From a virus (taxonomy: Duplodnaviria > Heunggongvirae > Uroviricota > Caudoviricetes), in IMG/VR virus record IMGVR_UViG_2713896791_000006: a stretch of 4,480 bases of DNA, one strand, 5' to 3'. Every line of letters begins with the position of its first letter. Positions within the stretch are counted from its first letter, which is position 1. Both the position numbers and the translations under genes were made by a program. Below, in pieces: positions 280 through 4,480 of this stretch. The notes beneath the pieces were generated by a model. That model searched no databases. It was not told the DNA's origin and saw nothing but the letters and a program-made list of their open reading frames with translations.

Positions 280-408
280 TCAGCCATTAGATTTTGCCGA
301 ACTGGAAAGCACCTGTTTAAATTCGTTGAAGCTGTGAGCTTCTTCGCCTTCGGCAAGGCCTTCGAAGTATTCTTCGTAAGCCTTTTCCATGATTGTGTCG
401 AAATCCAT
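280..408 (-). CDS. Very small acidic protein (42 aa, MDFDTIMEKAYEEYFEGLAEGEEAHSFNEFKQVLSSSAKSNG); absent from the supplied ORF track
   Basis: Own translation of the minus strand: ATG at 408-406, stop TGA at 282-280. An AGGTGG Shine-Dalgarno-like motif (RC of 414-419) lies 5 nt upstream of the ATG. The upstream ORF's stop and this start are arranged TGAtATG (412-406), suggesting translational coupling. The plus-strand ORF 265-462 is its Phe-rich antisense shadow. Confidence 0.4.
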   Translation of the reverse strand: MDFDTIMEKAYEEYFEGLAEGEEAHSFNEFKQVLSSSAKSNG

Positions 409-409
409 A

Positions 410-658
410 TCACCCACCTGAATTTCTTTCCAGCCAGCGACGCGCTCCAGATTCGGTTTTAAACGTTTTGCTTTTGGTATACGTCATTGCGGTGAACGTA
501 CCGTACTGGTTGGGGAACACGCCACATACCAGAGATTCGCTGTTGCCAAGATCGATAGTATCCATGCTGACCTCATTNNNNNNNNNNNNNNNNNNNNNNN
601 NNNNNNNNNNNNNNNNNNNNNNNNNNNCATAGTTATTAAAGTTGAACCCTGCCGTCAT
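410..658 (-). CDS. First gene of the leftward operon, interrupted by the assembly gap; true length and frame continuity unknown
   Basis: ATG at 658-656 (MTAGFNFNNY...) about 94 nt downstream of the predicted leftward promoter, with GAGG 9 nt upstream. The reading frame enters the 50-N gap (578-627); because the gap length is arbitrary, the N-terminal and C-terminal parts are only artificially joined in the ORF track. The C-terminal part ends at TGA 412-410. Confidence 0.4.
   Translation of the reverse strand: MTAGFNFNNYXXXXXXXXXXXXXXXXXNEVSMDTIDLGNSESLVCGVFPNQYGTFTAMTYTKSKTFKTESGARRWLERNSGG
578..627. other. Assembly/scaffold gap (50 N)
   Basis: Run of exactly 50 N; the flanking sequences are not duplicated, so this is probably a true gap of unknown size. 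Confidence 0.95.
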
Positions 659-758
659 GTTCTTACGCCTCGGGCTGGCTACTTAACCCGTGACCACTGC
701 CTGGTAACTCGAGGTATTGCCCTGTATTGTGTGGGACGGGATGGGTTGGTATGGGAAA

Positions 759-3985: not shown

Positions 3986-4480
3986 GATGGAAACTGTATT
4001 GCATGCACTGAAAGCGATGGGAAAAGCCAATTCTGTTGAACTGGCGGCGCGGCTTGATATCAGCCGTGAAGAAGTTCTTAACGAACTGTGGGAACTCAAA
4101 AAAAATGGCGTTGTTGATAAAACGGGTCACACCTGGTTTCTGGCTGTCGAAGGTGANNNNNNNNNNNNNNNNNNNNNNNNNNNNNNNNNNNNNNNNNNNN
4201 NNNNNNTCAAAAAAAATGGCGTTGTTGATAAAACGGGTCACACCTGGTTTCTGGCTGTCGAAGGTGAAGCCGGGGTAACCGAAGGGCAGGCACTACAACC
4301 TGAAGCGCCGGATGTGGTAACCGAAGAGGTCGCTCCAAAAGTTACCGCAGACATGATGGTTGAGTTTATCGGTCAGGATGGTGCTAAAACGTGTGAGGAA
4401 CTGGCGGGTAAGTTCGGCGTCAGTACTCGCAAGGTTGCTTCCACGCTGGCGGTGGTAACCGCAACGGGGCGGCTGGCACG
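3986..4480 (+). CDS. Hypothetical protein with two winged-helix-like segments; partial (runs off the window) and interrupted by an artefactual gap
   Basis: ATG at 3986 with GAGGTAAA (3973-3980) upstream: [57 protein letters not shown]... The frame resumes after the gap at 4209 ([28 protein letters not shown]...[35 protein letters not shown]...) and is open to 4480. Could be a YdaW-like gene, but I cannot confirm this. Confidence 0.5.
4096..4267. repeat. 61-bp exact direct duplication (4096-4156 = 4207-4267) across the N gap; probable mis-joined overlapping contig ends
   Basis: Both copies read tcaaaaaaaatggcgttgttgataaaacgggtcacacctggtttctggctgtcgaaggtga. Removing the gap and one copy restores a continuous in-frame ORF. 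Confidence 0.85.
4157..4206. other. Assembly/scaffold gap (50 N) flanked by duplicated contig ends
   Basis: Run of exactly 50 N; the 61 bp before and after are identical. Confidence 0.95.

Follow-up and report, generated by a model that had tools for sequence, protein, structure and literature searches.

YdfB, a conserved acidic micro-protein encoded in the early-left operon of Rac/Qin-type lambdoid prophages, and a candidate pseudoknot in the operon leader

Introduction

The dicBF operon of Qin, a cryptic prophage of Escherichia coli K-12, has the gene order ydfA-ydfB-ydfC-dicF-dicB-ydfD, with a repressor-controlled promoter before ydfA (PMC5069750, PMC10448788). The promoter-proximal genes of this operon, ydfA, ydfB and ydfC, specify small proteins without known function (PMC5069750), and as of 2023 only DicF, DicB and YdfD had been characterised (PMC10448788). 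When the K-12 operon was expressed from Plac with dicF and dicB deleted and ydfA, ydfB, ydfC and ydfD present, cells grew normally and had normal viability and morphology (PMC5069750). The ydfB gene is missing from some E. coli strains, such as ATCC 8739 (PMC5069750), so it is dispensable for the prophage in the lysogen. A second described arrangement is found in the K-12 prophage Rac, where ydaG and ydaF are the first early-left genes behind racR, YdaF being a DUF1391 paralogue of YdfA and YdaG a 44-residue protein of unrelated sequence.

Here we analyse a 4,480-nucleotide stretch of viral DNA (record IMGVR_UViG_2713896791_000006; hereafter the window) whose early-left region resembles each of these systems in part. 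We followed up a preliminary description that had been made from the letters of the window and that had singled out a group of small minus-strand genes, one of them encoding a 42-residue acidic peptide.

Results

Identity of the operon

The first 900 bases of the window matched over their whole length in 77 complete E. coli genomes, many of them at 100% identity, and E. coli O103:H2 12009 (NC_013353.1), in which the coding sequences are annotated, was 100% identical to the window. RefSeq places racR, a DUF1391 protein gene, a 129-bp "hypothetical protein" gene (WP_000344934.1) and ydfC in this order on the window's minus strand, and beyond ydfC it annotates dicB, a DUF1482 protein gene, an exonuclease, an excisionase and an integrase. 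To the right of racR the same annotation lists a YdaS-like HTH gene, a YdaT-family gene and replication genes. This gene content on both sides of racR marks the window as the immunity region of a lambdoid prophage of the Rac/Qin type.

Outside the window, the parent genome carries a DicF RNA after ydfC (Rfam RF00039; 76.7 bits against a cut-off of 48), and dicB is annotated further downstream of ydfC on the same strand. Since DicF and dicB follow ydfC in this genome, the locus is a dicBF-type operon behind a Rac-type immunity module, and we regard it as virtually certain that ydfA, ydfB and ydfC occupy minus-strand positions 32-565 as the genes nearest the promoter in the dicBF-type early-left operon of a Rac/Qin-hybrid lambdoid prophage. 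The preliminary description had proposed an early-left operon of small genes at this place, and the repressor-controlled leftward promoter, racR and the downstream DicF and dicB bear this out. It had also invoked the early-left region as a location of small host-interference genes and had named cell-division factors as candidates, which holds in that the division inhibitors DicF RNA and DicB belong to the operon, although they are encoded further downstream, outside the window.

The lengths of ydfA (156 bp), ydfB (129 bp) and ydfC (219 bp) in K-12 Qin, as well as the 1-nt and 29-nt spacers that separate them, are the same in the window. Unlike Qin, which encodes DicA and DicC, the window has its operon behind a RacR-type repressor with YdaS and YdaT; its leader is of the long form (about 190 nt) seen in K-12 Rac, whereas that of Qin is short (about 70 nt); and its parent prophage, in contrast with Qin, retains the exonuclease, xis and int. 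K-12 Rac shares with the window the repressor type, the leader motif described below and the position of the operon, but it has YdaG and is without YdfB and YdfC.

Of 5426 complete E. coli genomes, 4025 contained some part of the ydfABC block and 2311 contained 80% or more of it; ydfA with ydfB, ydfC only and ydfA only also occur as sub-blocks on their own among these genomes. The three genes are already named, still uncharacterised prophage genes and are not new. The 42-codon open reading frame had been called unannotated, which is correct for the list of open reading frames supplied with the window but not beyond it, as RefSeq annotates it (WP_000344934.1) and K-12 has it as ydfB.

Promoter and operators

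The CI-like repressor gene that precedes the operon, racR, lies at 896-1372 on the minus strand as a 158-codon open reading frame, and RefSeq names its product "DNA-binding transcriptional repressor RacR" on the identical sequence. Between racR and the small genes, a promoter scan and an analysis of repeat families (D1-D4) delimited a minus-strand regulatory region (759-822) that contains the strong leftward early promoter and three operator repeats. The leftward promoter that had been predicted upstream of the small genes is indeed present among these repeats as TTGACA-17-TATAGT at 787-759, with 11 of 12 matches, its -35 element at 787-782 and its -10 element at 764-759. The three repeats, TTAGGC-N4-GCCTAA, occupy 762-775, 787-800 and 806-822 with a spacing of 25 bp. 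Three repeats at the rightward promoter are their mirror image, and this symmetry includes a 23-nt perfect inverted repeat, shared with the rightward promoter at 1424-1446, in which the -35 hexamer lies. This arrangement is the classical OL/OR layout. Because the sigma-70 promoter overlaps three RacR-type operators, the operon is silent in the lysogen. Derepression yields a single transcript that, in the parent genome, runs through ydfA, ydfB, ydfC, DicF RNA, dicB, the DUF1482 (ydfD-like) gene, the exonuclease, xis and int.

The first gene and the leader RNA

The first gene of the operon is a ydfA homologue at 410-565 on the minus strand that encodes a 51-residue DUF1391 protein and has the same ends as the RefSeq coding sequence. 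Its product matched Pfam PF07151 (DUF1391) at 90.8 bits, against a cut-off of 27.3, with residues 2-49 covering positions 1-48 of the 48-position profile. The protein is 90% identical to K-12 YdfA, and the gene has its own GAGG Shine-Dalgarno sequence. The preliminary description had taken the first gene to be interrupted by a gap; the run of 50 N at 578-627 instead lies in the 5' leader, where it stands for 38 real bases that we filled in from the identical genome.

We rejected an extended first gene at 410-658 (82 residues with the N run, 78 in the real sequence). Its ATG at 658 is in frame in the allele of the window, but K-12 Qin has no upstream ATG and that of K-12 Rac is out of frame and meets a stop inside the leader motif; in addition, the Pfam model spans the 51-residue form only, and the extension overlaps a conserved RNA motif. 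YdfA also resembled the lambda head decoration protein weakly (E = 0.59); we put this down to chance and take it to be the probable source of the odd label "head-DNA stabilization protein D" that some phage records bear.

The 5' leader of the operon extends over about 190 nt (566-758, minus strand), and the bases hidden by the N run include a conserved motif. With the gap filled from the identical genome, the motif reads GTTC-CGCT-A-CCCC-GGCG-TTAA-GGGG and lies just 5' of the ydfA Shine-Dalgarno sequence.

The motif was also found before ydfA in Qin, before ydaG in K-12 Rac and before the ydfB-like gene in prophages of Citrobacter, Enterobacter and Klebsiella. A pattern scan of viral contigs placed it 7-19 nt upstream of many unrelated first open reading frames, and nearly all of these matches were in early-left operons of Rac/Qin-like prophages. 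Two helices of the motif, NGCY/GGCN' and CCCC/GGGG, overlap so as to form an H-type pseudoknot of about 26 nt with a loop that always ends in AA. Across 17 distinct variants, 89.7% of the cells pair, a figure to be read with the fact that the structure was derived from the same sequences as the covariation test, although the search patterns left the covarying positions unconstrained. Both sides of a pair had changed in 14 cells, compared with 3.6 +/- 1.5 in shuffled alignments (none of 500 shuffles reached 14), and the covariation score was 0.364 as against 0.154 for shuffles and at most 0.138 when the partners were slid. Pair 5-17 was seen as C-G, A-U, G-C and U-A and pair 11-24 as C-G and G-C, with no mismatch in either.

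An Rfam search of the leader returned no match. The idea that the leader is a homologue of HK022 put was dropped for want of sequence support (local alignment score 17, compared with a shuffle mean of 14.3 and a maximum of 22), whereas a true putL homologue, found at one locus with a ydfB-like gene, scores 80 and sits with a terminator in the same place as the leader motif.

Coding status and conservation of ydfB and ydfC

Two of the open reading frames reported in the preliminary description, one of 72 codons at 32-250 and one of 42 codons at 280-408, both on the minus strand, are present as claimed. The former is a ydfC homologue preceded by the Shine-Dalgarno sequence GAGGA (RefSeq "protein YdfC"; phrog_1744, E = 1.7e-38), and its product is 93% identical to K-12 YdfC. 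The latter is a ydfB homologue that starts with ATG (WP_000344934.1; phrog_2061, E = 2.5e-26), and database matches to the peptide carry the name "protein YdfB". K-12 YdfB (b1572) likewise has 42 residues and is encoded between ydfA and ydfC behind the same TGAtATG junction; it is 93% identical to the window peptide over 42 of 42 residues, with the substitutions L25H, S28N and A33V. The peptide is as acidic as had been stated, with 10 aspartate and glutamate residues compared with 3 lysine and arginine residues, a pI of 4.2 and a net charge of about -7.

The stop/start junction TGA-t-ATG noted in the preliminary description was read at 412-406, with the ydfA stop codon at 412-410 and the ydfB start codon at 408-406, and the Shine-Dalgarno sequence AGGTGG of ydfB lies at 419-414. 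The gap of 1 nt between stop and start, together with the presence of ydfB's own Shine-Dalgarno sequence, suggests that translation of ydfB is coupled to that of ydfA. A GTG start at 417, which the ORF tool had listed and which would give 45 residues, was set aside because the ATG at 408 is served by AGGTGG and is the start used by RefSeq and in K-12.

A word-index search with ydfB recovered close Escherichia relatives only, while an exhaustive HMMER search with the peptide returned 38 representatives, and scans of genomes and viral contigs yielded 42 distinct core sequences from Escherichia (including E. albertii), Citrobacter, Enterobacter, Klebsiella and Pantoea. The preliminary description had said that a lack of homologues with conserved frames would refute its proposal; such homologues are in fact found in many prophages of several genera. 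Some relatives are short, with 29-40 residues, and start at Met7 of the E. coli form. The shared core of 29 residues reads M-[ED]-K-A-Y-E-E-Y-F-x-x-L-A-E-G-E-E-A-L-S-F-x-E-F-x-x-A-L-S, with ten residues invariant across genera. In a set of 13 diverged sequences from at least 5 genera, pN was 0.13 and pS 0.77 over the core (pN/pS 0.165, with synonymous sites saturated); third codon positions varied in 28 of 29 codons, first positions in 12 of 29 and second positions in 11 of 29. Each of the 13 homologues in this set is preceded by a Shine-Dalgarno sequence. Taken together, this pattern of substitution identifies ydfB as a real protein-coding gene under purifying selection. The longer PHROG profile phrog_35040 and longer database proteins that include the YdfB sequence were judged to be over-extended or frameshifted gene calls and not domain fusions. 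Our literature search found no papers for the YdfB peptide sequence.

Genomic context of ydfB

The gene order was the same in nearly all of the 154 distinct contexts: a cro-like gene on the opposite strand, a DicA/RacR-type repressor, ydfA where present, and ydfB, followed by optional ydfC and dicB and then by a ydfD-like DUF1482 gene, kilR, ydaE and the exonuclease. In loci that lack ydfA, the repressor gene is followed first by the ydfB-like gene. The gene co-occurs with RacR-, DicA- and other CI-type repressors, and its core is 64-76% identical between loci, while the adjoining repressors are only about 19-43% identical to DicA. We also considered whether ydfB might be a gene of plasmid leading regions and rejected this, as only 5 plasmid records carried it, all of them large, non-mobilizable E. 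coli records.

Predicted fold and family searches

With the family alignment as input, AlphaFold2 modelled YdfB as a helix (residues 3-16), a loop of about 10 residues and a second helix (residues 27-40) at a mean pLDDT of 85; YdfB is thus predicted to be an acidic, aromatic-rich helix-loop-helix micro-protein. A peptide of 29-42 residues may require a partner or dimerisation for any folding. Searches of YdfB against Pfam, NCBIfam, PADLOC, PDB sequences and, with Foldseek, PDB structures gave no anti-defence, defence or other functional family; the Foldseek search of the predicted model against the PDB returned no match at all, and PHROGs lists phrog_2061 as of unknown function. None of the three peptides showed similarity to Kil, KilR, SieB, Gam or CIII (Pfam at E <= 1; NCBIfam; PADLOC).

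A profile search of PDB sequences did return seven weak matches to YdfB, all of them EF-hand proteins (best E = 0.016), which align EGEEALSFAEF of YdfB with DGDSAISFTEF, the second half of an EF-hand loop and its exiting helix. An hhalign comparison with calmodulin chose the same segment at a probability of only 4%, and no Pfam EF-hand model reached threshold on the YdfB family (best E = 0.12, in 1 of 16 members). The loop of YdfB also departs from the canonical one: position 1 is Leu or Ala where Asp is expected, position 6 is Glu where Gly is expected, and Glu takes the place of Asp or Asn among the acidic ligands. Since thresholds failed and both Asp-1 and Gly-6 are missing, we treat this as a resemblance and not as membership of the EF-hand family.

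The C-terminal tail of SSB ends in ...MDFDDDIPF, and we considered mimicry of this tail by the YdfB N-terminus, MDFD. This idea was dropped because the residues are absent or different outside Escherichia: the Citrobacter N-terminus is MDTNDY, and the 29-residue forms begin at Met7.

Discussion

We tentatively favour, as a possibility that falls short of being probable, a role for YdfB as an early, non-toxic binder that inhibits a conserved host or defence protein or serves as its decoy. What leads us to a binder of a host or defence protein is that YdfB appears to be made first, is tiny, acidic, aromatic-rich and harmless, and is better conserved than the neighbouring regulators; since the core is kept while the adjacent repressors diverge, its partner is more likely to be a conserved host-side protein than a variable phage regulator. 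YdfB would be produced within the first minutes after derepression or infection and would bind a protein that is conserved across Enterobacterales, blocking or decoying a basic surface of it. Either a host factor or a defence enzyme that binds nucleic acids would be this putative target, and the action of YdfB would leave the cell unharmed. Small, acidic, helical phage inhibitors that appear very early and are harmless to the host include T7 Ocr, T7 gp5.9 and lambda Gam. The likeness of YdfB to these proteins is a functional analogy only, as there is no sequence or fold match and YdfB is much smaller; likewise, YdfB would fit among DNA mimics (Ocr, ArdA, gp5.9 and Gam) by composition only (charge about -7, pI 4.2). 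A defence-modulating role for the small genes, as suggested in the preliminary description, is possible. The sole phenotype on record, a match in an ASKA overexpression screen for resistance to H2O2 and HOCl (PMC8228696), is irrelevant to a binder mechanism.

We also considered whether YdfB could act in the phage's own switch, either by a CIII-like protection of the CII-like YdaT against proteolysis or by binding the repressor to lock derepression. YdfB would be the first product of the early-left promoter and is encoded beside an immunity region in which YdaS and YdaT occupy the cro and cII positions, and lambda CIII, too, is a small helical peptide of the early-left region. However, YdfB has no similarity to Lambda_CIII or to any other Pfam family, its core is far better conserved than the adjacent repressors (about 19-43% identical to DicA), and the finding of RacR-, DicA- and other CI-type repressors all beside ydfB argues against a repressor-specific partner, so we consider a switch role improbable. 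A role in which the peptide itself is inert, and translation of a short open reading frame retains ribosomes on the transcript, prevents Rho-dependent termination or mRNA decay and couples downstream expression, would suit the short reading frames, the 1-nt ydfA/ydfB stop-start gap and the long untranslated stretch with dicF after ydfC; it is contradicted by purifying selection on the amino acid sequence (pN/pS 0.165) and by the ten residues that are invariant across genera, and we judge it very improbable.

Still less credence can be given to the suggestion that the three peptides are kil-like host-killing factors or cell-division inhibitors, the main idea of the preliminary description, which had mentioned kil, sieB and gam analogues as genes of this region. 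Early-left operons do hold such genes, DicF and DicB are encoded downstream here, and KilR and Lambda_Kil genes follow the ydfB-like gene in related loci, but we found no Kil, KilR or SieB family match, and the K-12 operon without dicF and dicB was harmless, being like wild type in growth, viable counts and morphology (PMC5069750), which makes a kil-like role unlikely and largely refutes it for K-12. We hold it to be just as doubtful that YdfB binds metal as a single EF-hand-like peptide and dimerises when calcium is bound. The seven PDB matches were all to EF-hand proteins, hhalign chose the same calmodulin segment and the predicted loop length fits; against this stand the hhalign probability of 4%, the Pfam scores below threshold and the non-canonical loop positions 1 and 6 and ligand types.

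The covariation in the leader points to an RNA structure that could bring about antitermination by RNA only, serve as a translational operator or stabilise the mRNA. By analogy with HK022, where the same place is held by putL, the pseudoknot could provide put-like antitermination or translation control. A more ambitious reading would make the YdfB core a new class of phage micro-protein, an Ocr-like early decoy of a host enzyme of defence or DNA processing, whose conserved gene would open the early-left operons of N-less Rac/Qin-type prophages throughout Enterobacterales, and the leader pseudoknot a new cis-acting RNA; we think this unlikely as a whole.

About three in four complete E. coli genomes carry ydfA, ydfB and ydfC, often as multiple copies, and the genes have been named for decades, and the findings on YdfB leave the picture of lambdoid early-left operons unchanged. 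What is added here is that YdfB has a selected core of 29 residues that is shared by prophages of several enterobacterial genera and that its gene stands at or near the start of the early-left operon in nearly all contexts. This makes YdfB a well-defined and cheap target for a binding-partner or anti-defence screen. The 29-residue core and the leader pseudoknot under the N run are most worth following up; if functional, the pseudoknot could help to explain read-through of the dicF terminator or control of first-gene translation in prophages that have no N.

A conserved motif in the early-left leader fits an RNA pseudoknot

The minus-strand leader of the early-left operon contains a conserved motif of ~26 nt, GTTC-NGCY-N-CCCC-GGCN'-WYAA-GGGG, which sits immediately 5' of the first early-left gene. 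The motif falls in an N-masked part of the window (578-627), and its real sequence was read from positions 6579-6603 (minus strand) of L001, a gap-free stretch of genome identical to the window. The N-runs at 578-627 and 4157-4206 are both assembly gaps whose N counts do not equal their true lengths: the first has 50 Ns in place of 38 real bases, while a stretch of ~51 bp is duplicated on the flanks of the second and the real sequence is therefore continuous there.

Judged by its sequence, the motif fits a candidate H-type pseudoknot. Covariation was observed in both helices, with 14 double-sided changes compared to 3.6 ± 1.5 in shuffled alignments (0/500), and the motif was found upstream of many unrelated first ORFs of Rac/Qin-like prophages. 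Comparison with Rfam gave no match, and no similarity was found to putL, the antiterminator RNA of phage HK022.

In its long form, the leader has an additional conserved module on the minus strand, ~80 nt in length (CAGGGCAATACCTCGAGTTACC...GTAAGAACATGACGGCAG; window 628-740), which is possibly a structured RNA. This module is common to the window, the K-12 Rac prophage and a Citrobacter-type locus; two other comparison loci (L006 and L018) have a differing version, and the short Qin leader is without it.

Annotation of ydfA and ydfB

Phage records ON470583.1, ON470580.1 and PV340562.1 annotate their ydfA homologue as "head-DNA stabilization protein D". This label is probably wrong, because the sole basis that we found for it was a resemblance, at chance level (E = 0.59), between the YdfA sequence and the head decoration protein of lambda.

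In some E. coli prophages without ydfA, the leader is fused straight to ydfB (proteins P0004, P0008 and P0019; compare window 566-658), and at these junctions gene callers give products of 68-73 aa (MTAGFNFN...NEVN-MDFDTIM...). Both ydfA and ydfB start with ATGGAT, each directly after a similar ribosome-binding sequence, and these shared features may favour ydfA deletions. Within ydfB, a terminator scan returned a GC-rich inverted repeat on the plus strand, opposite the gene (CTTCGGCAAGGCCTTCGAAG; window 348-367). The region codes for the FEGLAEGE segment of YdfB, and the repeat is probably a by-product of repetitive codons.

Putative RacR operators at the early promoters

Operator-like repeats, TTAGGC-N4-GCCTAA, occur three per early promoter at 762-822 and 1401-1468 with a spacing of 25-26 bp, and a 23-nt perfect inverted repeat (781-803 / 1424-1446) takes in both -35 hexamers. 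The two repeat sets are likely the OL and OR of RacR.

Separately, an exact 13-nt direct repeat, GGGTTGGTATGGG, is present in two copies, one a short way 3' of the -10 hexamer of the leftward promoter, near where transcription is expected to begin (743-755), and the other within the racR coding sequence (1132-1144). By our estimate, the chance expectation for such an exact repeat is ~0.006 in 881 bp.

A putL homologue upstream of a ydfB-like gene

A clear homologue of HK022 putL was identified at ~2870-2990 of L104, a locus on viral contig IMGVR_UViG_2811995239_000002, with an alignment score of 80 compared to a shuffle maximum of 32. In this locus, the putL homologue and, after it, a terminator-like hairpin immediately precede a ydfB-like gene, which takes the place that nun has in HK022.
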